DNA of 8,772 nt, taken from the IMG/VR virus record IMGVR_UViG_2548876958_000017. The stretch is one strand, 5' to 3'. Shown here piece by piece: positions 1-8,772 of this stretch (positions within the stretch are counted from its first letter, which is position 1; each line of letters begins with the position of its first letter). Under the pieces are notes generated by a model. The model worked only from the letters and a program-made list of their open reading frames with translations. It was not told the origin of the DNA and searched no databases. This stretch comes from a virus (Duplodnaviria > Heunggongvirae > Uroviricota > Caudoviricetes). Position numbers and translations under genes: made by a program.

Positions 1-84
1 GCGCCACTGATCGCCCACTTCCTTCAGTTCATGGGCTGGTTTGTTCCGCAGTTCCACCAGCGCCTGGCAATATTTATTACTCAT
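1..84 (-). CDS. Partial CDS, N-terminal 28 codons only (continues past window start); product unknown, possibly a phage Dam-like DNA methyltransferase (speculative)
   Basis: Reverse-strand ATG at 84..82 overlaps the stop of the upstream gene (TAATG). Translation MSNKYCQALVELRNKPAHELKEVGDQWR stays open to position 1. The final DQWR could begin a D.W.TP motif, but the rest is outside the window. Confidence 0.4.
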   Translation of the reverse strand, partial: MSNKYCQALVELRNKPAHELKEVGDQWR

Positions 85-578
85 TAAGCCCCCACGTAAT
101 TCCCTGACAGATACCACTCTTCACCCGATGCAGCGCGCTTGCTGCTTTTCCGTAAGCACCGCTCACGACGCGCCAGAAAATTGTTTCGTTCTGGCTGGGA
201 GTGGCTTTCACGGAATGCCGCCATCCACACGGTTGCAGCACGACGGTATAAGCCCCTGGACTCCAGTTCTTCCGCCTGGCGGGTCAGGCACAAAATCACA
301 CGGGGATCGTTAGTGCCGACATAGAAATTGCGCACAGGTCTGGTTTCACGAACTGGTTGTGGTTCCGGTTCCTGCGCTCTCTCAGTCAGGCGCGGGAAAT
401 GTCTGCGTGTATCTCCTTCACAACGGTGAGCCACACGCCCACTCTGACGTAACTTGCTTGCTGACTGCAGAACGCGCTGCCGTGAGTAACCGGCAAAAGC
501 ATCCGCAATATCTCCGGAAGTACAGCCCGGATGGGCTTCAATGAATTTCTGAACGTCATTCAAAAGACTCATGCTCAC
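84..578 (-). CDS. Putative PerC/ANR-family-like transcriptional regulator with an N-terminal winged-helix-like domain (164 aa)
   Basis: ATG at 578..576 overlaps the stop of the O-like gene (ATGA coupling). The C-terminal segment LESRGLYRRAATVWMAAF...RRERCLRK resembles the PerC-family motif (GLWRRAA..W / RRN.C) as I recall it. The N-terminal ~60 aa look like a small DNA-binding fold. Family assignment is from memory only. Confidence 0.5.
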   Translation of the reverse strand: MSMSLLNDVQKFIEAHPGCTSGDIADAFAGYSRQRVLQSASKLRQSGRVAHRCEGDTRRHFPRLTERAQEPEPQPVRETRPVRNFYVGTNDPRVILCLTRQAEELESRGLYRRAATVWMAAFRESHSQPERNNFLARRERCLRKSSKRAASGEEWYLSGNYVGA

Positions 579-1516
579 CCCCTGAATCCTGCCGGGATCT
601 GGCTGTAGTCCACGTTGTCGTAACTGGCTTTGAAGTACGGGTCTTCGCGTTTTTCGGTGTACGTGCTGACGGACGGCGATAAGCGCAGGGAAAGCTCATC
701 CCATTTTTCCCGCAGCTTCGACGGGCTGAGCACGTTACGGCACCAGAACGGATCGCGACTGACGCGGCTGTACATCTCGCAGATTTGTTTATGAGTACGA
801 CCATCCTGCACACACATCAGGCGAATTTCGTTTGCCCAGGCTGTCCAGTTCGGTTCTTTGGGACGAACCACCTCGCCGTCACATTCGGCGGCCTGCTCGT
901 ACAGGGCGATGATTTTTTTCCAGAGCCACTGTGCGCAGGTCAAATCATCCTGCGTTCCCCACTGGCGCTTTTTAGGGCTGAATACAACCGCATCAGGATG
1001 GCGAGTTAAAAACTCCTGTTCAGCCGTCTGCGTGTCCGGTTGCGAAGCGTCCGGACGAGAAGTTTTTTTATCTGACGGATCATGTTTTGATTTTACTGAC
1101 GGATCCCCGCCAGATTCTGACGGGTGAAAACCCGCTTTTTTGCCAGATTTCGACGCATCAAATTTTGACGGGTCAGATTTTGATGCGTCAGATTTTGACG
1201 GGTCAGAATCTGACAGTTGAGAAAATGCCGCTGCCTGAAGCTTCGCAACGTTAAGCTGATAAACATTCGACGCATTGCGGTTACCCTGGCGACGCGCCTT
1301 ACGCGTTAACCAGCCTTCTGCTTCCAGCCGTGCGATAGCCGTTCTGACGGTACTCATTCCCGCGCCAATCTGGCGGGCAATGGTTTCAATTGATGGCCAG
1401 CACACACCTTCGTCATTACTGAAATCAGCTAGGCGGGCCATAATTGCCACGCTGGATAATTTCATGCCTGATGCAGCGCAACCATCCCATACATAGCCGG
1501 TTAATTTAGTGCTCAT
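575..1516 (-). CDS. Lambda O-like replication initiator (313 aa) containing the presumed origin iterons
   Basis: GAGG sits 6 nt upstream of ATG (1516..1514). The N-terminal segment is HTH-like (SVAIMARLADFSNDEGVCWPSIETIARQIGAGMSTVRTAIARLEAEGWL). The central low-complexity peptide DPSKSDASKSDPSKFDASKS is encoded by tandem ~15-bp repeats, as in lambda O where ori lies inside the gene. Confidence 0.8.
   Translation of the reverse strand: MSTKLTGYVWDGCAASGMKLSSVAIMARLADFSNDEGVCWPSIETIARQIGAGMSTVRTAIARLEAEGWLTRKARRQGNRNASNVYQLNVAKLQAAAFSQLSDSDPSKSDASKSDPSKFDASKSGKKAGFHPSESGGDPSVKSKHDPSDKKTSRPDASQPDTQTAEQEFLTRHPDAVVFSPKKRQWGTQDDLTCAQWLWKKIIALYEQAAECDGEVVRPKEPNWTAWANEIRLMCVQDGRTHKQICEMYSRVSRDPFWCRNVLSPSKLREKWDELSLRLSPSVSTYTEKREDPYFKASYDNVDYSQIPAGFRG
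1069..1219. repeat. Iteron array (about 7-8 copies, ~15-bp period, core CAGATTTTGACGGGT / TGACGG) inside the O-like gene; candidate replication origin
   Basis: Direct repeats read in sequence: tatctgacggatc, ttactgacggatc, cagattctgacgggt, cagatttcgacgcat, aaattttgacgggtc, agattttgatgcgtc, agattttgacgggtc, agaatctgacagttg. Confidence 0.75.
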
Positions 1517-1525
1517 GACCGACCT

Positions 1526-1864
1526 CTATTTCCCTGAATTTACGACGAAACTGTTCGAGCGGGCTGAAGCACTCATGCTCATAGCCTTCGCGGAGGTAGA
1601 TAACTCGTTGTGTTTCCGGCTCCCAACGAATGACTCTGACGGGCACTCCGTAGTGATCTTTGAACCAGCGGTTAACTTGTCGCAAAGGACTGTCTCCTTC
1701 TGCCGGTTGAAATCACCCACAGCCCACTCAGCAAAGCTGTGGGTTACAATTTCCCTGTCACCTGGTACATTAACTGCATAGCAATACTCCACCTTCGCTT
1801 TTCCACCCGGTACAGGAAGCGCAATCAGTTGCGAGCGACGGTAGTGTGTTGTTAAACTGTTCAT
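1526..1864 (-). CDS. Hypothetical protein (112 aa) between the CII-like and O-like genes
   Basis: ATG at 1864..1862 overlaps the stop of the upstream CII-like gene (ATGA). Its stop lies 9 nt before the O-like start. The C-terminal third is low-complexity (Ser/Ala-rich), so coding status is uncertain. Confidence 0.4.
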
Positions 1865-2424
1865 GCGTTAGTTTCTCCACAGTCACGACACGCCACGGCG
1901 CCCGGAGCTGCACACTCGCGGGCGTCATTACTTTCTGAAATGCAAAAGATTTTGTAGACCAGTGCTGCATGCTCCTGCAGCTTCGAAATTGAGAGATACA
2001 GCTCGTCGTTAATTGCTGTCTTCTCATGCGGTTCCACCACACCGTCTTCGATTGCCGAACGAATCTGTCTGGAATAACTGCCAATCTGTTCAATGACTTC
2101 CAGCAGGCGCTGGTTAATATCGGCGTTGTCCACATCCTCGACGTCAGGAAGAGACACAAAGACGCCATTTGCAGACTGCGCCACAGCGTCAGCAATGAAG
2201 TGAGTGCCACCAGCACGTTGTAAAATCATTGCCCATCCCAGCGGGAAAATCTGATCGCCATCGGCACGAAGGCGGTTAAATAATGCGTTCTCTGTTACAT
2301 CCAGCCAGTCAGCTGCTTCAGCGTAACCACCCGGCAACTTTGCGATAGTTTTTCTGACAGCTTTCACGTACCACTCAGGCTGTTTTTCTACTTTCCAGTG
2401 ATGCTTACCCACGGTTAGCCTCAT
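1861..2424 (-). CDS. CII-like lysogeny-establishment regulator (187 aa), resembling the phage 186 CII / YdaT-type family
   Basis: It occupies the cII position directly downstream of cro. The segment [37 protein letters not shown] resembles the 186 CII region (...LRNKLNPEQPHQFTPPELWLL...DGFLAQ) from memory. The start is ambiguous: ATG at 2424 has no clear SD, while an in-frame GTG 12 nt downstream has AGG upstream. Confidence 0.55.
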
Positions 2425-2455
2425 CGTTCTGTGGTTAAAAATTGAAAGTGTTCTG

Positions 2456-2656
2456 CTAATCTTTCGGATAGATATCCGGTCTTAAGTCAGATTTCGTAAT
2501 TGCACCTGACGTGCATTGCTCAAGTTTTTTAGCCAGCACAAAACTGGCTTTTTTATAGCCATTGAAAACCAGCCGTAAGTAGCCAGGTGTTGAGCCAACT
2601 TTTCCGGCCAACTCGCCCTGCTGTTCTTTGGTTAAAGAGTCCCAATACGCTTTCAT
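2456..2656 (-). CDS. cro: Cro/YdaS-like HTH regulator (66 aa)
   Basis: It is divergent from the repressor gene. ATG at 2656 is preceded by GGAGG about 10 nt upstream on the minus strand. The sequence MKAYWDSLTKEQQGELAGKVGSTPGYLRLVFNGYKKASFVLAKKLEQCTSGAITKSDLRPDIY has a small HTH typical of YdaS/Cro-like proteins. The longer 167-aa ORF form would overlap the operators and the repressor gene. Confidence 0.8.
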   Translation of the reverse strand: MKAYWDSLTKEQQGELAGKVGSTPGYLRLVFNGYKKASFVLAKKLEQCTSGAITKSDLRPDIYPKD

Positions 2657-2746
2657 ACAATATGTACCTCCGGTGTACATATTACATGATTGAAATGAAC
2701 CTTCAAGATACTTGTACCTTAGCGGTACAAGGGTTTTAATTTCGTT
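2657..2746. promoter_or_regulatory. Divergent pR/pRM-type control region with two palindromic operators (OR)
   Basis: Operator 1 is ATGTACctccggtGTACAT at 2662..2680. Operator 2 is cTTGTACCttagcGGTACAAg at 2711..2731, with perfect 8-bp arms. Candidate pR on the minus strand is -35 TTGAAG (plus coords 2701..2706) and -10 TAATAT (2679..2684). There is no SD before the cI ATG, and TTTAAT at 2735..2740 is consistent with a leaderless pRM transcript. Confidence 0.65.
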
Positions 2747-3421
2747 ATGAAAACAATCCATGACATCCGGCGGTCTAACGCCAGAAAACTGAGAGATGGT
2801 GTTGGCGGGAATTCTTCCTTTGCCACTATGATTGATCGCGAGCCAACCCAGACCAGCAGGTTTATGGGAGATGGGGCTACTAAAAATATCGGTGACAGCA
2901 TGGCACGACACATCGAAAAATGTTTCGACCTGCCTGTCGGATGGCTCGATCAAGAACACCAGACAACGAACATCACAAAAAAACCTGATGTTTCAATCAC
3001 TAATAAACAAATCACATTAGTCCCTGTCATATCATGGGTACAGGCCGGAGCATGGAAAGAAGTTGGATATTCTGAGGTTGATTTGAGCACAGCAGAAACG
3101 TATCCCTGCCCTGTACCCTGTGGGGAAATGACTTATATCTTGCGGGTGATAGGTGATTCAATGATTGATGAGTACCGCCCGGGAGACATGATTTTTGTCG
3201 ATCCTGAAGTACCTGCCTGCCACGGTGACGACGTTATTGCATTGATGCACGATACAGGCGAAACCACCTTCAAAAGGTTGATAGAAGATGGGACACAGCG
3301 TTATCTTAAAGCGTTAAACCCAAACTGGCCTGAGCCTTACATTAAGATCAACGGTAATTGCTCTATAATTGGTACAGTGATTTTCTCCGGAAAACCAAGA
3401 AGATACAAAATCAAAGCCTAA
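2747..3421 (+). CDS. CI-type prophage repressor with a C-terminal S24 (LexA-like) autopeptidase domain (224 aa)
   Basis: The C-terminal domain closely parallels P22 C2 / lambda CI: ...ISWVQAGAWKE..., catalytic-Ser context VIGDSM, and Lys context TFKRL; compare P22 C2 ISWVSAGQW...QGDSM...TFKKL. The N-terminal ~90 aa are a distinct DNA-binding domain. It is divergent from cro across the operator region. Confidence 0.9.
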   Translation: MKTIHDIRRSNARKLRDGVGGNSSFATMIDREPTQTSRFMGDGATKNIGDSMARHIEKCFDLPVGWLDQEHQTTNITKKPDVSITNKQITLVPVISWVQAGAWKEVGYSEVDLSTAETYPCPVPCGEMTYILRVIGDSMIDEYRPGDMIFVDPEVPACHGDDVIALMHDTGETTFKRLIEDGTQRYLKALNPNWPEPYIKINGNCSIIGTVIFSGKPRRYKIKA

Positions 3422-3433
3422 TCAATGTTTATG

Positions 3434-3456
3434 AACCTGCTTCGGCAGGTTTTTTT
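3434..3456 (+). terminator. Rho-independent terminator after the repressor gene
   Basis: Perfect 7-bp stem AACCTGC / GCAGGTT with TTCG loop, followed by a T run (ttttttt), starting 13 nt after the cI stop. Confidence 0.8.
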
Positions 3457-3460
3457 ATAC

Positions 3461-3493
3461 TTGACAATGTACCTTTGAGATACATAATGTACC
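3461..3493 (+). promoter_or_regulatory. pL-type early-left promoter with OL operator
   Basis: -35 TTGACA (3461..3466), 16-nt spacer, -10 CATAAT (3483..3488). Operator-like palindrome ATGTACCTTTGAGATACAT (3467..3485) lies between -35 and -10, and a second ATGTACC half-site is at 3487..3493. Same half-site as in OR. Confidence 0.65.
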
Positions 3494-3592
3494 CAACCGA
3501 AACAACGAACAGGCAGGACGCCCACGAAGTAGCCGCCGGTGGCGTATGAATGACCGGATGATTCGTTAAATACTATGTGTAAGAGAGCGCAA

Positions 3593-3796
3593 ATGAACCG
3601 TTATTTCACATGCTCGTTTTGTGGCGCAAACGAGCTGCAGGCAAAAAAAATCATCGCCAAAGGCGGAAAAGATGAAATTGCTATCTGCTCTGAGTGCGTA
3701 GTCTTGTGTGTCGGGGCATTAATCAATATCAGCACAACTATTCAGTTCACACCAAATGAGAATGCGCCTTTAGATGCGAGGAAATCTGGAGGTTAA
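3593..3796 (+). CDS. Small free-standing ClpX-type C4 zinc-finger (ZBD-like) protein (67 aa)
   Basis: Start ATG at 3593 is preceded by GAGAG; the upstream ATG at 3575 has no SD. YFTCSFCGANELQAKKIIAKGGKDEIAICSECVVLCVGALI aligns with the E. coli ClpX N-terminal zinc-binding domain [37 protein letters not shown] (CSFCG ... IC.ECV.LC, four Cys). Confidence 0.7.
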   Translation: MNRYFTCSFCGANELQAKKIIAKGGKDEIAICSECVVLCVGALINISTTIQFTPNENAPLDARKSGG

Positions 3797-3885
3797 AGAA
3801 CAAAATGAAAGTCCAGATTTTAAACAATAACTGTGAAGTCGTTTGGGCGTAAAACATGACCGCGCGTAGACCAAGGGAGGAAAAA

Positions 3886-4062
3886 GTGGGAATAGTTAGA
3901 AATCAAGCAGATATATTGAAAATCAGCTCTGAATTGCTTGGAGTTTTGAAAAGTGAGCTCACCGCACATGGCATCGAGCCCACTGACGAAAATTTAAGTT
4001 GGGTTTTGTCGATTATTCAACAATCACTCAAGCCCAGCCTCAGCAAACTTTTTATCGAGTAG
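3886..4062 (+). CDS. Hypothetical small protein (58 aa from GTG; 68 aa if ATG 3856 is used)
   Basis: Strong SD AGGGAGG at 3874..3880, 5 nt before GTG 3886; the ATG at 3856 lacks an SD. The predicted protein is helical-looking with no recognisable motif. Its 3' end overlaps the convergent minus-strand ORF by 39 nt. Confidence 0.45.
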   Translation: MGIVRNQADILKISSELLGVLKSELTAHGIEPTDENLSWVLSIIQQSLKPSLSKLFIE

Positions 4063-4215
4063 TGCTTCGAACTTATCGTAAAGCTTGCTTATGTCGTCTA
4101 TCGGGTTTTCTGACGTACTGTAATTTTTATCTGATGTCATGGCAGCAGTCTGATATGCAGTGTGAGTCTTAACCGATAGTTGGAATAAATAAAGAATTTT
4201 TTCTTCTTTGGTCAT
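4024..4215 (-). CDS. Hypothetical small protein (63 aa), oriented against the pL operon
   Basis: ATG at 4215 with AAGGAAA about 7 nt upstream on the minus strand. A weak candidate promoter lies in 4216..4300 (minus-strand TTCACC-16-TATCTT). The predicted sequence MTKEEKILYLFQLSVKTHTAYQTAAMTSDKNYSTSENPIDDISKLYDKFEALLDKKFAEAGLE has no recognised family. Confidence 0.5.
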   Translation of the reverse strand: MTKEEKILYLFQLSVKTHTAYQTAAMTSDKNYSTSENPIDDISKLYDKFEALLDKKFAEAGLE

Positions 4216-4259
4216 AACTATTTCCTTCTTGGCTATATGAAAACACCAAGATACCACCG

Positions 4260-4729
4260 AGCCTGAAGTGGTGAAAAGACAGGCACATAACAGCTAAGTA
4301 TTTTCAACCAGAGAGAATCCTTAGCGTTGTGGTGAATGCGGCTCAGCGCACGCGGGTTAAGGTTGAGGCTGACAGTCGACCTTCTGTGGATACCCACCCG
4401 CCTGGTGTGCAACCTTCGCCAGGCACCGGGAGGCACCCGGCACCACAACTTTATGCTGTGTGTAGTCTTGGCGGTACCAGCTTGTACCCTTGCTTCCGGC
4501 TGGTACCGTCCTTTTTACAAAACAGAGAAGAGCATCACCGGACGACGGGCTCATAACCCAATCCATCCGGGCGGCTGCCACCGCAGGTGTTCTTCTCTGT
4601 TTTGTGGAGAAACTAACCGCCCCTACGGGGGCATTTATGGAAATGTAATTGACTCAATAATCGCCGGACGGTGAGGGCCTCCTTTTACCCGAATTCAGCG
4701 CGGTGCAGCGCATATACGTGGAGAACAAA
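4260..4729. other. GC-rich, ORF-poor, hairpin-dense non-coding island (candidate structured RNA or DNA site)
   Basis: Only overlapping ORFs rich in Arg/Gly/Pro and rare codons (AGG, CGG, GGG). 41 of 60 bases at 4381..4440 are G or C, against 22 of 60 at 4081..4140. Perfect 15-bp inverted repeat ACAAAACAGAGAAGA (4517..4531) / TCTTCTCTGTTTTGT (4591..4605); perfect 10-bp inverted repeat CGGTACCAGC (4472..4481) / GCTGGTACCG (4499..4508); further hairpins at 4400..4424, 4426..4440 and 4619..4632. Confidence 0.5.
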
Positions 4730-5266
4730 ATGTCATTTATTAAAACTTTTTCCGGGAAGCATTTTTATTATGACAGGATAAATAAAGACGACATCGTTAT
4801 TAACGATATCGCGGTTTCCCTTTCAAATATCTGTCGCTTTGCAGGACATCTTTCACACTTCTACAGTGTCGCCCAACATGCGGTGCTTTGCAGCCAGCTA
4901 GTGCCACAGGAATTTGCTTTTGAAGCTTTAATGCATGATGCAACAGAAGCATATTGCCAGGACATCCCCGCACCACTGAAACGACTTCTTCCTGACTATA
5001 AACGGATGGAAGAAAAAATAGACGCCGTAATCCGTGAGAAATACGGGTTACCTCCTGTTATGAGCACGCCAGTGAAATATGCCGATCTCATTATGCTGGC
5101 AACCGAACGCCGCGATCTCGGGCTTGATGATGGCTCTTTCTGGCCTGTACTGGAAGGTATCCCGGCAACAGAGATGTTCAAAGTGATTCCACAGGCACCG
5201 AGCCATGCCTACGGGATGTTTATGGAACGTTTTAACGAGTTATCGGAGTTACGCAAATGCGCATGA
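4730..5266 (+). CDS. HD-domain phosphohydrolase, YfbR/YfdR-like putative 5'-deoxynucleotidase (178 aa)
   Basis: SD GGAGA 5 nt before ATG 4730. HD-superfamily metal-ligand pattern: H in ...FAGHLSHFYSVAQHAVL..., HD in ...ALMHDATEAYCQDIP..., downstream D in ...YADLIML.... Size and motif order match the small prophage HD hydrolases such as CPS-53 YfdR as I recall them. Confidence 0.8.
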   Translation: MSFIKTFSGKHFYYDRINKDDIVINDIAVSLSNICRFAGHLSHFYSVAQHAVLCSQLVPQEFAFEALMHDATEAYCQDIPAPLKRLLPDYKRMEEKIDAVIREKYGLPPVMSTPVKYADLIMLATERRDLGLDDGSFWPVLEGIPATEMFKVIPQAPSHAYGMFMERFNELSELRKCA

Positions 5267-5619
5267 ATGTTTTCGAAATGGAAGGGTTTCTTCGTGGGAG
5301 ATGTGTACCGCGAGATCTGAAAGTGAATGAAACAGATGCTGAATACCTGGTGCGTAAATTCGATGCGCTTGAAGCTAAATGTGCAGCACAGGAAAACAAA
5401 GTAATACCAGTGTCAACTGAACTGCCACCAGCAAATGAAAGTGTTTTGTTATTCGATGCTAACGGAGAAGGCTGGCTAATTGGCTGGCGTTCTCTCTGGT
5501 ACACCTGGGGACAAAAAGAAACCGGAGAATGGCAGTGGACATTTCAGGTCGGGAGCCTTGAAAACGTCAATATCACTCACTGGGCAGTAATGCCAAAAGC
5601 ACCGGAGGCTGGAGCATAA
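5257..5619 (+). CDS. DUF551-family phage protein (120 aa)
   Basis: Start overlaps the HD gene stop (ATGCGCATGA; ATG 5257 or 5263). Trp-rich C-terminal domain ...GEGWLIGW...GEWQW...ITHWAVMPKAPE matches the DUF551 C-terminal signature (..THWMPLPEPP) from memory. Confidence 0.7.
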   Translation: MRMNVFEMEGFLRGRCVPRDLKVNETDAEYLVRKFDALEAKCAAQENKVIPVSTELPPANESVLLFDANGEGWLIGWRSLWYTWGQKETGEWQWTFQVGSLENVNITHWAVMPKAPEAGA

Positions 5620-5924
5620 TGACCACTTTTACCGACAAAGAACTGATTAAAGAAATTAAAGAGCGTATCAGCAGCCTTGACGTGCGAGACGATATTGAGC
5701 GCCGTGCTTATGAAATCGCACTCCTATCTCTGGAAGTAGAACCAGATGAACGCGAAGCTTATGAATTATTCATGGAAAAGCGTTTCGGTGACTTAGTAGA
5801 TCGTCGGAGAGCAAAAAACGGCGATAACGAATACATGGCATGGGATATGACTCTCGGTTGGATCGTCTGGCAGCAACGAGCAGGTATCCATTTTTCAACA
5901 ATGTCACAACAAGAGGTGAAATAA
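5619..5924 (+). CDS. Hypothetical phage protein (101 aa)
   Basis: ATG overlaps the previous stop (TAATG at 5617..5621) and its own stop overlaps the xis ATG (TAATG at 5922..5926). GGAG lies upstream. No family recognised. Confidence 0.6.
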   Translation: MTTFTDKELIKEIKERISSLDVRDDIERRAYEIALLSLEVEPDEREAYELFMEKRFGDLVDRRRAKNGDNEYMAWDMTLGWIVWQQRAGIHFSTMSQQEVK

Positions 5925-6274
5925 TGGAGCCATACAGCCTCACACTCGATGAGGCCTGTCATTTTCTCAAGATATCCAGACCGACTGCCATTAACTGGAT
6001 ACGCACAGGGCGTCTTCAGGCAACACGCAAAGATCCCACTAAGAATAAATCTCCTTACCTCACAACACGACAAGCCTGCATTGCGGCTCTTCAGTCTCCG
6101 CTGCATACTGTCCAGGTGAGCGCGGGTGATGGCATAACAGAGGAAAGAAAATGTCACTCTTCCGCAGAGGTGAAATATGGTACGCCAGTTTCACATTGCC
6201 GAACGGTAAAAGATTTAAACAGTCTCTTGGAACAAAGGACAAAAGGCAGGCGACAGAACTCCATGACAAGCTAA
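5924..6274 (+). CDS. xis: Excisionase (Xis), P22-type, 116 aa; its 3' end overlaps int by 124 nt
   Basis: ATG 5924 is translationally coupled to the upstream gene, with GAGGTGA as SD. The N-terminal sequence [30 protein letters not shown] is a classic excisionase/AlpA-type HTH. It sits immediately upstream of int. The 116-aa length matches my recollection of P22 Xis. Confidence 0.75.
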
Positions 6275-7314
6275 AGGCTGAAGCATGGCGGGTCAGCAAA
6301 CTTGGTGAAATACCTGATATAACGTTCGAGGAAGCGTGTGTCAGGTGGCTTGAAGAGAAAGCACATAAAAAATCACTGGACGATGACAAAAGCCGGATCG
6401 GATTCTGGCTTCAACATTTCGCAGGAATGCAACTAAGAGACATTACTGAATCAAAAATTTATTCAGCAATGCAGAAAATGACGAACCGGCGTCATGAGGA
6501 AAACTGGAAACTCAGGGCAGAAGCATGCAGAAAAAAAGGGAAACCTGTTCCAGAATACACGCCAAAACCAGCGTCCGTTGCAACGAAGGCTACGCATCTT
6601 TCATTTATAAAGGCCCTACTAAGAGCCGCAGAGCGTGAATGGAAAATGCTGGATAAGGCACCAATTATTAAAGTGCCTCAACCAAAGAATAAACGGATCC
6701 GCTGGCTGGAGCCCCATGAAGCACAAAGGCTGATTGATGAATGTCCGGAGCCATTAAAGTCTGTTGTTGAATTTGCACTGGCAACAGGCTTAAGACGCTC
6801 GAACATCATCAACCTTGAATGGCAACAAATAGATATGCAGCGCCGGGTGGCATGGATAAACCCGGAAGAGAGTAAATCAAACCGCGCAATTGGCGTTGCG
6901 CTGAATGATACTGCATGTCGCGTATTGAAAAAACAAATCGGGAATCATCACCGTTGGGTATTTGTGTACAAGGAAAGCTGTACCAAACCAGACGGAACGA
7001 AAGCGCCAACAGTCAGGAAGATGCGGTATGACGCAAACACAGCCTGGAAAGCGGCGCTGAGACGGGCTGGTATTGATGATTTCAGATTTCACGACTTGAG
7101 ACACACCTGGGCAAGTTGGCTGGTTCAAGCCGGAGTCCCGTTGTCAGTGTTACAGGAAATGGGAGGCTGGGAGTCTATCGAAATGGTTCGTCGATATGCT
7201 CACCTTGCACCTAATCACCTTACCGAACACGCACGGCAAATAGACTCGATCCTGAACCCATCGGTCCCAAATTTGTCCCAGTCAAAAAATAAGGAAGATA
7301 CTAATGATGTGTAA
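6151..7314 (+). CDS. int: Tyrosine site-specific integrase, P22-like (387 aa)
   Basis: SD GAGGAAAG before ATG 6151. The N-terminus [46 protein letters not shown] is nearly identical to P22 Int as I recall it. C-terminal catalytic region has R...HDLRHT...RY ([39 protein letters not shown]). It ends 15 bp from the tRNA 3' end. Confidence 0.95.
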
Positions 7315-7328
7315 CTTATTGATTTAAA

Positions 7329-7404
7329 TGGTGCCGATAATAGGAGTCGAACCTACGACCTTCGCATTACGAATGCGCTGCTCTACCAACTGAGCTATAT
7401 CGGC
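7329..7404 (-). tRNA. thrW: tRNA-Thr (anticodon CGU), with encoded CCA
   Basis: The reverse complement reads GCCGATATAGCTCAGTTGGTAGAGCAGCGCATTCGTAATGCGAAGGTCGTAGGTTCGACTCCTATTATCGGCACCA. It has canonical D-loop (AGCTCAGTTGGTAGAGC), anticodon loop (CATTCGTAATG) and T-loop (GGTTCGACTCC), and a 7-bp acceptor stem (GCCGATA / TATCGGC). Confidence 0.97.
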
Positions 7405-7518: not shown

Positions 7519-8772
7519 TTACGCACGAATGGTGTAATCACCAATGCCGATCCACTTGTAAGTGGTCAGTGCTTCCAGCCCCATTGGGCCACGCGCGTGG
7601 AGTTTTTGTGTGCTTACCGCCACTTCCGCACCCAGACCAAACTGGCCGCCGTCGGTAAAACGCGTAGAGGCGTTAACGTAAACAGCGGACGAATCCACTT
7701 CGTTAACAAAACGCTGGGCGTTGCGCATATCGCGGGTCAGGATCGCATCGGAGTGTTGTGTGCCGTGTTCACGAATATGGGCGATGGCATCGTCAAGATC
7801 GCTGACGATTTTGACGTTCAAATCTAATGACAGAAACTCATCGTCATACTCTTCGGCTTTAACAGCAACCACCTTCGCAGGGCCTGCCTGCAACTGCGCC
7901 AGTGCAGCTGCATCTGCGTGTAATGTCACGCCGCTTTCCGCCATTTGTTTGCTTAATGCGGGCAGGAAGCTATCGGCGATGTTTTTATTCACCAGCAACG
8001 TTTCAACCGTATTACATGTGCTCGGACGCTGAGTTTTCGCGTTGACGATCACTTTTAATGCTTCAGCGATCTCTACACTTTCATCAACGTAAATATGGCA
8101 TACGCCTATACCACCTGTGATCACCGGGATTGTCGACTGTTCACGGCACAGTTTATGCAAACCAGCGCCACCACGCGGGATCAGCATGTCGATGTATTTA
8201 TCCATACGCAGCATTTCACTGACCAGCGCACGGTCAGGATTATCAATCGCCTGCACGGCACCCGCCGGTAAGCCGCAGGATTTCAGGGCGTCCTGAATCA
8301 CCGCCACCGTTGCAGCGTTAGTGCGACACGTTTCTTTGCCACCGCGCAGGATCACCGCATTACCGGTTTTCAGGCACAGCGAAGCGACATCAACCGTCAC
8401 GTTCGGGCGCGCTTCATAAATCACGCCAATAACCCCCAGCGGTACGCGACGACGCTCAAGACGCAGGCCGCTGTCCAGTACGCTGCCATCGATTACCTGC
8501 CCCACCGGATCGGCGAGGTTACACACCTGGCGCACATCATCGGCAATGCCTTTCAGCCGTGCGGGCGTCAGTGCCAGACGGTCAAGCATCGCTTCGCCAA
8601 GGCCATTGGCACGCGCGTCAGCAACATCCTGGGCGTTAGCGTTGAGGATGATTTCGCTTTGTGCTTCCAGTTCATCGGCGATTTTTTCCAGCACGCGATT
8701 TTTTTCGCGGCTGGAGAGTTGCGCTAATTTATACGAGGCTTGCTTCGCGGCAATGCCCATTTGTTCCAGCAT
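7519..8772 (-). CDS. proA: Gamma-glutamyl phosphate reductase (glutamate-5-semialdehyde dehydrogenase), 417 aa
   Basis: Full-length ORF whose translation ([30 protein letters not shown] ... [15 protein letters not shown]) I recognise as Escherichia coli ProA. The start codon is the last three bases of the window, so upstream context is absent. Confidence 0.95.

Follow-up and report, generated by a model that had tools for sequence, protein, structure and literature searches.

The early left operon of a lambdoid phage that lacks an N-type antiterminator raises the question of what, if anything, governs its transcription between the promoter and the distal genes. We addressed this question in an 8,772-nucleotide stretch of Caudoviricetes DNA (IMG/VR record IMGVR_UViG_2548876958_000017), hereafter called the window, in which the early left promoter pL (3461-3488) and the start of the excisionase gene xis (5924) lie ~2.46 kb apart, as a first-pass annotation made from the sequence alone had noted (~2.4 kb). 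That annotation regarded the arm as atypical and composed mostly of accessory cargo, and suggested that antitermination, if needed, might be based on RNA in the manner of HK022 put. Comparison with related phage genomes, among which SfII and SfV share the arm, revealed an element that it had missed: the pL transcript begins with a conserved, pseudoknotted RNA motif at exactly the position occupied by putL in HK022, which would give the idea of RNA-based control a more concrete form.

A structured RNA at the start of the pL transcript

The promoter pL matches the consensus closely and is confirmed by an operator common to OL and OR: the 17-mer TGTACC-N5-GGTACA occurs twice in OR (2663 and 2713) and once within the pL spacer (OL, 3468-3484). 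Transcription is predicted to start near 3495, and the leader motif begins ~8-10 nt past this point. The elements concerned are as follows.

3433-3452, plus strand: intrinsic terminator of the cI transcript, just upstream of pL (8-bp GC-rich stem and T-run, dG -11.6 kcal/mol)
3461-3488, plus strand: pL (-35 TTGACA 3461-3466, 16 nt, -10 CATAAT 3483-3488; 11 of 12 consensus positions)
3502-3571, plus strand: conserved pL-leader RNA motif, 63-70 nt (covariance model score 90.8 bits, single copy in the window)
3504-3509/3562-3567: leader helix P1
3512-3514/3520-3522: small leader hairpin, GGC paired with GCC, loop AGGAC
3532-3534/3541-3543: leader pseudoknot stem S1
3536-3540/3553-3557: leader helix S2

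Covariation was evaluated in an alignment of 44 non-redundant sequences with almost no gaps; column shuffles and partners slid by 1-3 columns served as controls. The proposed partners paired in 92.1% of cells, compared with 72.8% in the column shuffles, and double-sided changes numbered 145, compared with 51; the covariation score was 0.475, against 0.137 for shuffled columns (0 of 500 shuffles scored as high) and at most 0.12 for slid partners. Covarying pairs account for five of the six pairs of P1, which appears as AACGAA/UUCGUU, GCGAA/UUCGC, AGCAAA/UUUGCU, GUCAUC/GAUGAC, CCACC/GGUGG, AGGAAC/GUUCCU and GUUCGG/CCGAAC, and for all five pairs of S2, which appears as CCGGU/ACCGG, CCUGG/CCAGG, CCGAC/GUCGG, CUACC/GGUAG and others. 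Support for S1 (GCY/RGC) is modest, with a single covarying pair (CG in 30 sequences, UG in 8, UA in 3 and GC in 1). Because S1 is interleaved with S2, the fold is an H-type pseudoknot. The 14-nt core GCCCACGAAGUAGC (3520-3533) and the string GGCRUAYGAA are essentially invariant across the leader motif sequences. We conclude that the pL leader is a real structured RNA. Folding of the single sequence was misleading in this case, the result being unremarkable (z-score +0.5), and the motif was revealed by the comparative data alone. A seven-codon open reading frame (ORF) within the leader (MNDRMIR) was rejected as coding, its ATG being replaced by ACG in many variants.

Distribution and genomic context of the leader

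For several phages whose repressors are unrelated, similarity to the window was limited to ~3505-3565, and the leader segment was therefore searched on its own. The motif was found in 53 phage records at 82-98% identity, with almost none of the matches listed being annotated there; in 1844 of 5426 complete Escherichia coli genomes (34%), with no annotated feature in any match listed; and in at least 120 IMG/VR contigs. A genome scan yielded 118 stretches with the motif, mostly from Enterobacterales, and its few matches in unrelated taxa are taken to be chance. The lambdoid carriers are phages of Escherichia, Shigella, Salmonella, Klebsiella, Citrobacter, Yersinia, Pantoea, Pectobacterium (ZF40) and Aeromonas (pAEv1818); the lytic carriers are T5-like Providencia phages, with the motif in the pre-early region and terminal repeat, and the KP34-like E. 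coli podovirus Minorna, with the motif in the early region. Among the matches listed, each phage record has the leader at one place, except for two records with two places. The covariance model detected one copy each in SfII, SfV and the K-12 prophage e14 (73.9 bits, between ymfK/cohE and ymfJ), and none on the pR side of the window or in the HK022 immunity region. No family of Rfam 15 covers the leader, even at E <= 10 (131-nt input), and the full-text literature accessible without subscription contained no relevant description of the core string or of put-like or novel phage leader motifs; the motif is apparently undescribed so far.

In temperate phages, the leader is flanked by the repressor gene on one side and by the first early-left gene on the other, and it is always co-oriented with the early operon. 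A consensus promoter is recognizable in 57 of 120 contexts, and in most its -10 element ends 11-14 nt before P1, so that the fold starts at approximately +5 to +10. A terminator is present within 400 nt upstream in 165 of 209 contexts and represents the end of the repressor transcript. The first gene begins 8 to more than 300 nt from the leader, and the motif is independent of the identity of this gene; because the motif is found in temperate phages with unrelated repressors as well as in T5-like and KP34-like phages, it is tied to early transcription by host RNA polymerase (RNAP) and not to any downstream gene. When an STnc100-type RNA core (described below) is found within 2.5 kb downstream of the leader, it always occupies the same strand (29 versus 0 cases). 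As a separate observation, 53 of the 209 contexts contain a terminator-like hairpin on the opposite strand that points back toward pL.

Two types of nut-like module follow the leader in some relatives. In 21 of 120 contexts, compared with 5 on the control strand, a hairpin and AGCUCUUUAACAA or CGCUCUUUAA (boxA) are found, in the boxB-boxA order of rrn leaders, where boxA is likewise preceded by a hairpin; written as DNA, this module consists of the hairpin and AGCTCTTTAACAA or CGCTCTTTAA. The other type, found in ZF40 and pAEv1818, combines ACGUUCYG with a small GC hairpin carrying a GAAAGA loop. Nut-like modules were located in sequences L127 (~5750-5790, minus strand) and L135 (~2575-2600), and also in L087, L134 and L133. 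Neither type follows the leader in the window, SfII, SfV or e14.

Absence of N/nut and comparison with known antitermination RNAs

The ORFs between pL and xis were scanned against four libraries (Pfam, PHROGs, NCBIfam and PADLOC; E <= 0.1), and none matched an N, Erf/Red/Abc, Kil or defence family. No ORF between pL and xis matched Red-beta/Exo/Gam, Erf, Abc or Kil in Pfam or PHROGs, and no defence system in PADLOC was matched by any ORF. The predicted isoelectric points of these ORF products range from 4.8 to 8.6 and their arginine content from 0 to 10%; none is basic or Arg-rich. No boxA (at most one mismatch) is present on the plus strand downstream of pL, and no boxB-like hairpin (G-initiated with an A-rich loop, GNR(N)A-type) is present anywhere in the window. 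Only 31 bp separate cro from the cII-like gene, too little to accommodate nutR and tR1 on the pR side. Thus, at the sensitivity available, a lambda-type N/nut system is absent from this arm, and the statements of the first-pass annotation that N-type, recombination and kil genes and a nut site are missing all stand. Like lambda nut and the boxB-boxA-boxC elements of rrn operons, the leader is a promoter-proximal RNA in an early operon, but the motif itself resembles neither boxA nor boxB.

The suggested resemblance to HK022 put is confined to position and general character. In HK022, the ~70-nt putL RNA begins at position +3 of the pL transcript and targets the zinc-binding domain of the RNAP beta' subunit (PMC9378689). 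The leader, too, begins within ~10 nt of the pL start, is non-coding, has a similar size (63-70 nt) and displays a similar pattern of conservation across enterobacterial phages. However, the two RNAs have no sequence similarity, blastn-short returning only chance matches of 8-11 nt; put folds into two stem-loops with a triplex, whereas the leader consists of a closing helix and an H-type pseudoknot; the 24 records with put are disjoint from the 53 with the leader; and put is present after both pL and pR, whereas the leader is present in a single copy without a pR partner in the window, SfII and SfV. Direct comparison, blastn-short, a put-family search and the covariance model were all negative, and homology to put was rejected.

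An STnc100/PasD-family RNA and three terminators

The first-pass annotation described a non-coding island between the small ORFs and the HD hydrolase gene. This island (4258-4702) folds far better than shuffled sequences (z-score -7.0); it is structured, and it belongs to the known STnc100/PasD family of small RNAs (sRNAs), with a sub-threshold score. The match to Rfam family RF02076 (STnc100) spans model positions 1-206 and scores 43.4 bits against a gathering threshold of 47 (E 5.9e-7); the SfV copy scores 39.5 bits. The following elements were delineated.

4226-4290, either strand: two-hairpin element between orf63 and the sRNA core (CUUGG..CCAAG and ACCACC..GGUGGU, ~45-65 nt)
4327-4449, plus strand: STnc100/PasD-family sRNA core (the RF02076 match spans 4296-4519)
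4327-4335/4441-4449: sRNA helix P1
4400-4407/4417-4424: sRNA helix P4
4426-4440: sRNA helix P5
4470-4516, plus strand: T1, intrinsic terminator that ends the sRNA (13-bp stem, CUUUUU, dG -23 kcal/mol)
4513-4609, plus strand: T2, long near-perfect hairpin (A-tract before, U-tract after, dG -49.7 kcal/mol)
4619-4640, plus strand: T3, short GC hairpin and AUUUAU, in SfV the terminator after yfdQ

STnc100 and the Hfq-associated PasD sRNAs of enteropathogenic E. coli (EPEC) have been proposed to share an ancestor, with Hfq binding published for PasD only (Zhu, Shabalina & Storz, bioRxiv 2026). The window RNA shares with this family the 20-mer hairpin sequence CCGGGAGGCACCCGGCACCA, the closing helix, the order of helices, a 3' intrinsic terminator and a prophage location, and differs in a divergent P2 hairpin and in the position of its core, ~830 nt downstream of pL. 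The 20-mer is present in at least 120 IMG/VR contigs that fall into 40 sequence clusters sharing little else. The common architecture, the helices of which covary across the 40 clusters, comprises a closing helix GUGGUG/CACCAC with covarying outer pairs, P2, a variable P3, P4 and an invariant P5; the GUGGUG/CACCAC helix, the P5 hairpin CCGGG-AGGCA-CCCGG and the 3' intrinsic terminator are all present in the window. Additionally, AAGGUUG in the J2/3 segment after P2 (4359-4365) pairs with CAACCUU in the P4 loop (4410-4416). This pseudoknot is represented by at least 20 different complementary duplexes across the 40 clusters, and a duplex of at least 6 bp can form in 73% of matched pairs, compared with 22% of mismatched pairs. 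The pairing of J2/3 with the P4 loop was previously unrecognized in the STnc100/PasD family, and the RNAalifold-based analysis of the preprint would not predict it.

In many members of the family, a TTGAC-17/18-TAAATT promoter lies directly upstream of P1, separated from it by a few nucleotides. The window belongs to a subtype without such a promoter, together with SfV, ST64B-like L033, 118970_sal3, L013, L068, L089 and a Kluyvera variant; its best candidate is an 8/12 site at 4276-4304. The STnc100-like sRNA has no strong promoter of its own in this subtype and would need to be processed from the pL transcript. No copy of IpeX or of K-12 STnc100 was found in DLP12 or CPS-53.

T1-T3 lie ~900 nt from the leader, in front of yfdR-xis-int, and T1/T2 separate pL from yfdR-int in SfII, SfV, ST64B and 118970_sal3. 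When the E. coli/Shigella version of T1 is compared with that of Salmonella, four stem pairs differ by compensatory changes; T2 shows one such pair and is terminator-like and possibly bidirectional. The 4468-4630 module has been retained in the Stx2c, mEp460 and cdtI phages. The two-hairpin element at 4226-4290 recurs, 75-95% conserved, in phages of Kluyvera, Klebsiella and Salmonella that differ in its flanks; it is probably the 5' untranslated region of orf63. In the Klebsiella sequence L127, an element of this type is directly continued by a tail and terminator similar to those that follow the core in the window, as if the STnc100 core had been inserted into a simpler unit. SfII_35, a 112-aa ORF (SfII 6646-6984, equivalent to window 4336-4674, plus strand), lies wholly over the STnc100-like RNA and T1-T2 and matches no PHROG family; it has been listed as a 'unique hypothetical protein' of SfII (PMC3772137), and is most likely a non-coding RNA region misread as an ORF.

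Genes between the leader and the integrase

The inventory of ORFs agrees with that of the first-pass annotation, except that the start of orf68 was moved to a GTG at 3886, which yields a 58-aa product (orf58).

3575-3796, plus strand: ClpX zinc-binding-domain-like protein, 73 aa (PF06689, 39 bits against a cut-off of 27, 7.4e-10)
3886-4062, plus strand: orf58 (orf68 with revised start), small acidic two-helix protein, GTG start, homologues 58-59 aa
4024-4215, minus strand: orf63 (SfII_36), small helical protein, 63 aa (phrog_2605)
4730-5266, plus strand: yfdR, HD-domain 5'-deoxynucleotidase (phrog_318, 2.7e-110)
5257-5619, plus strand: yfdS, DUF551 (PF04448, 22 bits, equal to the cut-off; phrog_583, 1e-81; K-12 orthologue)
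5619-5924, plus strand: yfdT, 101 aa (phrog_660; K-12 orthologue)
5924-6274, plus strand: xis, HTH_17 excisionase, end of the block (PF12728, 3e-8; phrog_2907, 1.3e-50; TIGR01764)

The gene directly after the leader replaces 45 bp of SfII/SfV sequence and encodes a protein that aligns to the solved zinc-binding domain (ZBD) of E. coli ClpX (PDB 2DS5/1OVX) at E 2e-4, with all four cysteines. It shares with that domain (1OVX, 2DS5-2DS8) the C4 zinc ribbon and the CSFCG...ICxECV.LC signature; unlike ClpX, which has an AAA+ unfoldase, the window protein consists of a stand-alone ZBD and is encoded by a phage. It is rare: no more than four phage records have homologues. Salmonella phage 118970_sal3 has the same order as the window: repressor, ZBD gene, small ORFs, RNA island, yfdQ and yfdR. 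The free domain might plausibly, although we consider it rather unlikely, compete with ClpX for ZBD-dependent substrates or adaptors. A 15-codon ORF (3806-3853, MKVQILNNNCEVVWA) starts just past the ClpX-ZBD insertion, where the sequence again matches SfII/SfV; its ATG is also present in SfV, in frame within orf33 (98 aa).

The start of orf58 at GTG 3886 is preceded by GGAGG 6 nt upstream, and all homologues start there; therefore, the Arg-rich patch MTARRPREEK of orf68 is probably untranslated. We rejected orf68 as an N-like protein, ARRPREEK lying upstream of the internal GTG and not being conserved as protein. orf58 matches phrog_15476 and the C-terminal part of phrog_2982 (the YmfJ-like set), the N-terminal part of which is shared by YmfJ and the first early gene of Aeromonas pAEv1818. 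Its position as the first gene of the early-left arm is conserved in SfII and in Kluyvera and Klebsiella prophages. As the first-pass annotation had proposed, the small ORFs were also examined by structure prediction: AlphaFold2 (AF2) yielded a helical hairpin for orf58 (predicted local distance difference test score, pLDDT, 68) and a two-helix hairpin for orf63 (pLDDT 77), and Foldseek found no significant match in PDB for either (best E for orf58, 1.8). The two genes converge and overlap by 39 nt, with orf63 on the antisense strand of the pL operon. The pair also directly follows cI and pL in prophages of Kluyvera and Klebsiella (L124 and L127), and ymfJ/ymfI of K-12 e14 (NC_000913.3 1201497-1202084) mirrors it. 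A convergent, 3'-overlapping pair of small genes directly after pL (window 3856-4215) recurs in SfII-like prophages, in those of Kluyvera, Klebsiella and Salmonella, and in e14.

The yfdR product scores just below the cut-off of the Pfam YfbR-like family (24.6 versus 25.9 bits), and no PDB relative was found for yfdT. The segment yfdR-yfdT is 95.3% identical at the nucleotide level to K-12 CPS-53. YfdR binds DnaA, and multicopy yfdQRST inhibits initiation at oriC (PMC4776307). Because the interaction of YfdR with DnaA is published, part of the block in which the first-pass annotation suspected an undescribed phage-host interaction module is already described; the suspicion of such a module was partly right, its novelty in this part was not. 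The window and SfII have lost yfdP-yfdQ relative to SfV; the junction at ~4619-4630 fuses the hairpin that follows yfdQ in SfV (T3) to sequence preceding yfdP. The arm is short because of this deletion, both genes being present in SfV and CPS-53. Together with the inserted ClpX-ZBD gene, this loss bears out the description of the arm as a mosaic of accessory genes without an N-type system.

Possible function of the leader RNA

We propose a scheme in which the layout of the arm is combined with roles for the leader, the sRNA and YfdR, and we give this scheme as a whole an even chance of being correct. Upon inactivation of CI, transcripts from pL would make the leader RNA first. The leader would act on elongation or termination, or on the assembly of host factors on RNAP, in a manner like putL or rrn leaders in logic, not in ancestry. 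A fraction of the polymerases would then pass T1-T3 and reach yfdRST-xis-int, the remaining ones would stop at T1 and define the 3' end of the STnc100-like sRNA, and YfdR would subsequently damp initiation by host DnaA at oriC, as published for K-12. The position and conservation of the leader lead us to suggest, tentatively, that it may act in cis and co-transcriptionally on RNAP or on a termination or Nus-type factor. A broader proposal, which we regard as unlikely, is that the leader represents a new class of cis-acting elongation element, either an analogue of put or a scaffold for host Nus/ribosomal-protein antitermination factors, by which N-less lambdoid phages (including e14), T5-like phages and KP34-like phages might carry RNAP through terminators or Rho.

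Several observations weigh against this scheme. The leader is present in a single copy per phage with none after pR, unlike put; a terminator lies within 400 nt downstream in only 14 of 209 contexts, a frequency that also led us to reject the leader as a simple attenuator; the STnc100 assignment is sub-threshold; and the promoter-like site at 4634-4661 (8/12), upstream of yfdR, could drive yfdR-int independently. Moreover, some phages carry the leader alongside nut-like or boxA modules, and it may therefore be accessory to antitermination or unrelated to it. Its 5-10 unpaired 5' nucleotides and GGA loop would fit CsrA binding or RNA processing equally well.

These observations can be accommodated in other ways. 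If there were no antitermination, pL would drive a short immediate-early unit (leader, ClpX-ZBD, orf58 and sRNA) that ends at T1-T3, yfdRST-xis-int would be transcribed from their own internal or CII-dependent promoters, and the leader would serve stability, processing, translation or protein binding. We consider this, the main rival of our scheme, possible, if somewhat unlikely: the three consecutive terminator-like hairpins, with T1 and T2 strongly stable, are consistent with it, as are the promoter-like site just mentioned, the rarity of terminators near the leader motif and the missing pR copy, but as an internal promoter this site is a weak candidate, and a scan of the window for CII-type TTGC-N6-TTGC sites was negative. 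An invariant 14-nt core and a pseudoknot, retained from Aeromonas to T5-like phages, would also be needless for a purely stabilizing 5' hairpin, and P1, 5-10 nt from the 5' end, has poor geometry for 5'-end protection.

Two further explanations assign the leader to a protein partner, and we consider both improbable. The leader could be a binding site or sponge for a host RNA-binding protein (CsrA, Hfq or S4/S1) that couples early expression to host physiology, as might be suggested by the GGA retained in the small hairpin loop of the variants inspected (AGGAC, AGGAA, AUGGA and AAGGAAA; window 3516-3518) and by a second site, GGAUGA (window 3556-3561), located ~40 nt further downstream in most leader sequences. 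However, the second GGA is lost in ZF40 and the Aeromonas phage, the invariant core far exceeds a CsrA site in length, and the leader is not a conventional translational operator, because the start codon lies 8 to more than 300 nt away. Alternatively, a protein antiterminator other than N, such as an orf58/YmfJ-like protein (the phrog_2982 set) or the ClpX-ZBD protein, might modify RNAP with the leader as its loading site. The recurrence of the leader followed by a first gene of the YmfJ/orf58 type in e14, pAEv1818, SfII and Kluyvera and Klebsiella prophages would agree with this, whereas the orf58 and ClpX-ZBD-like proteins are acidic and not Arg-rich, the first gene of SfV is unrelated (phrog_3195), T5-like and KP34-like phages have the leader without orf58 or ClpX-ZBD genes, and the predicted structures of orf58 and orf63 offered no informative fold in Foldseek searches.

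Should the leader act on elongation, as in the scheme that we favor, it would explain how terminators of the early left operon are read through in many N-less lambdoid phages, and would constitute a third solution beside N/nut and put. The gene content of the arm is itself ordinary and essentially present in GenBank already; the value of the locus lies in two RNAs missed by gene-centred annotation, namely the leader motif and the pseudoknot of the STnc100/PasD family. The leader is among the most conserved non-coding elements of these phages and occupies the position of the antitermination signals of lambda and HK022. The 5' domain of STnc100/PasD, pseudoknotted and covarying, is not what is usual in sRNAs that act by base pairing, which hints that the role of this family may extend beyond seed pairing.

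Lineage and mosaic structure of the prophage

The block from pL to xis is the early-left arm of a lambdoid prophage of the SfII/SfV type, which is integrated at thrW, next to proA. A P22/SfV-type integrase gene (6151-7314) adjoins tRNA-Thr(CGT) (7329-7404, minus strand), with proA (7519-8772, minus strand) at the right end; this is the thrW attachment site of Shigella serotype-converting phages. Piecewise comparison with SfII and SfV established the following mosaic.

1-2440: SfII-like (97.6%)
1828-3567: SfV-like, with cro, cI, pL and the leader (94.2%)
3568-3802: in neither SfII nor SfV
3803-7374: SfII-like (99.1%)

The prophage is thus a recombinant that carries SfV-type immunity (cro-cI-pL) on an SfII-like backbone (replication/cII region and left arm). 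Positions 3500-6200 are 98.9% identical to SfII and ~97% identical to SfV and SfIV (megablast), and parts of the block are present in 3911 of 5426 complete E. coli genomes. The arms of SfII, SfV and SfIV and the yfdP-T cluster of K-12 CPS-53 (KplE1) share gene order and near-identical DNA with the window, which differs from SfII and SfV in its extra ClpX-ZBD gene and from SfV and CPS-53 in lacking yfdP-yfdQ. Judged by sequence, the arm is standard for the published SfII/SfV/SfIV/ST64B/CPS-53 lineage, and in this respect the view of it as atypical did not hold. SfII was obtained as an infective phage (PMC3772137); because it has the same arm, minus ClpX-ZBD, the lack of N, Red and Kil is a viable trait of this lineage.

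On the pR side, SfV contains matches to C4 antisense RNA (82 bits) and IsrK (64 bits) at 2917-3105, downstream of the cII-like region; the window, with its SfII-like replication region, shows neither match in Rfam. Within the O-like replication gene of the window (575-1516), a cluster of direct and inverted repeats of the GATTTTGACGGGTCAGA type (1087-1275) looks like origin iterons inside a replication initiator gene, comparable to lambda O. Two Rfam matches were dismissed as spurious, mir-5880 falling on these iteron-like repeats and Plastid-ycf2 on the tRNA. Upstream, in the nin-like region of the pR operon, 84-578 (minus strand) encodes a 164-aa protein with a PerC activator domain (PF06069, 7.9e-9; phrog_1324); activators of the PerC type have been associated with the control of virulence in EPEC and enterohaemorrhagic E. 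coli. Window positions 1-1283 are 98% identical to yfdM-yfdN-yfdO of K-12 CPS-53 (NC_000913.3 2472305-2473587), which correspond to the PerC-like gene and the truncated replication gene. In K-12, a deletion from this point to the region upstream of yfdP has removed the immunity region and pL as well as the leader and the RNA island.

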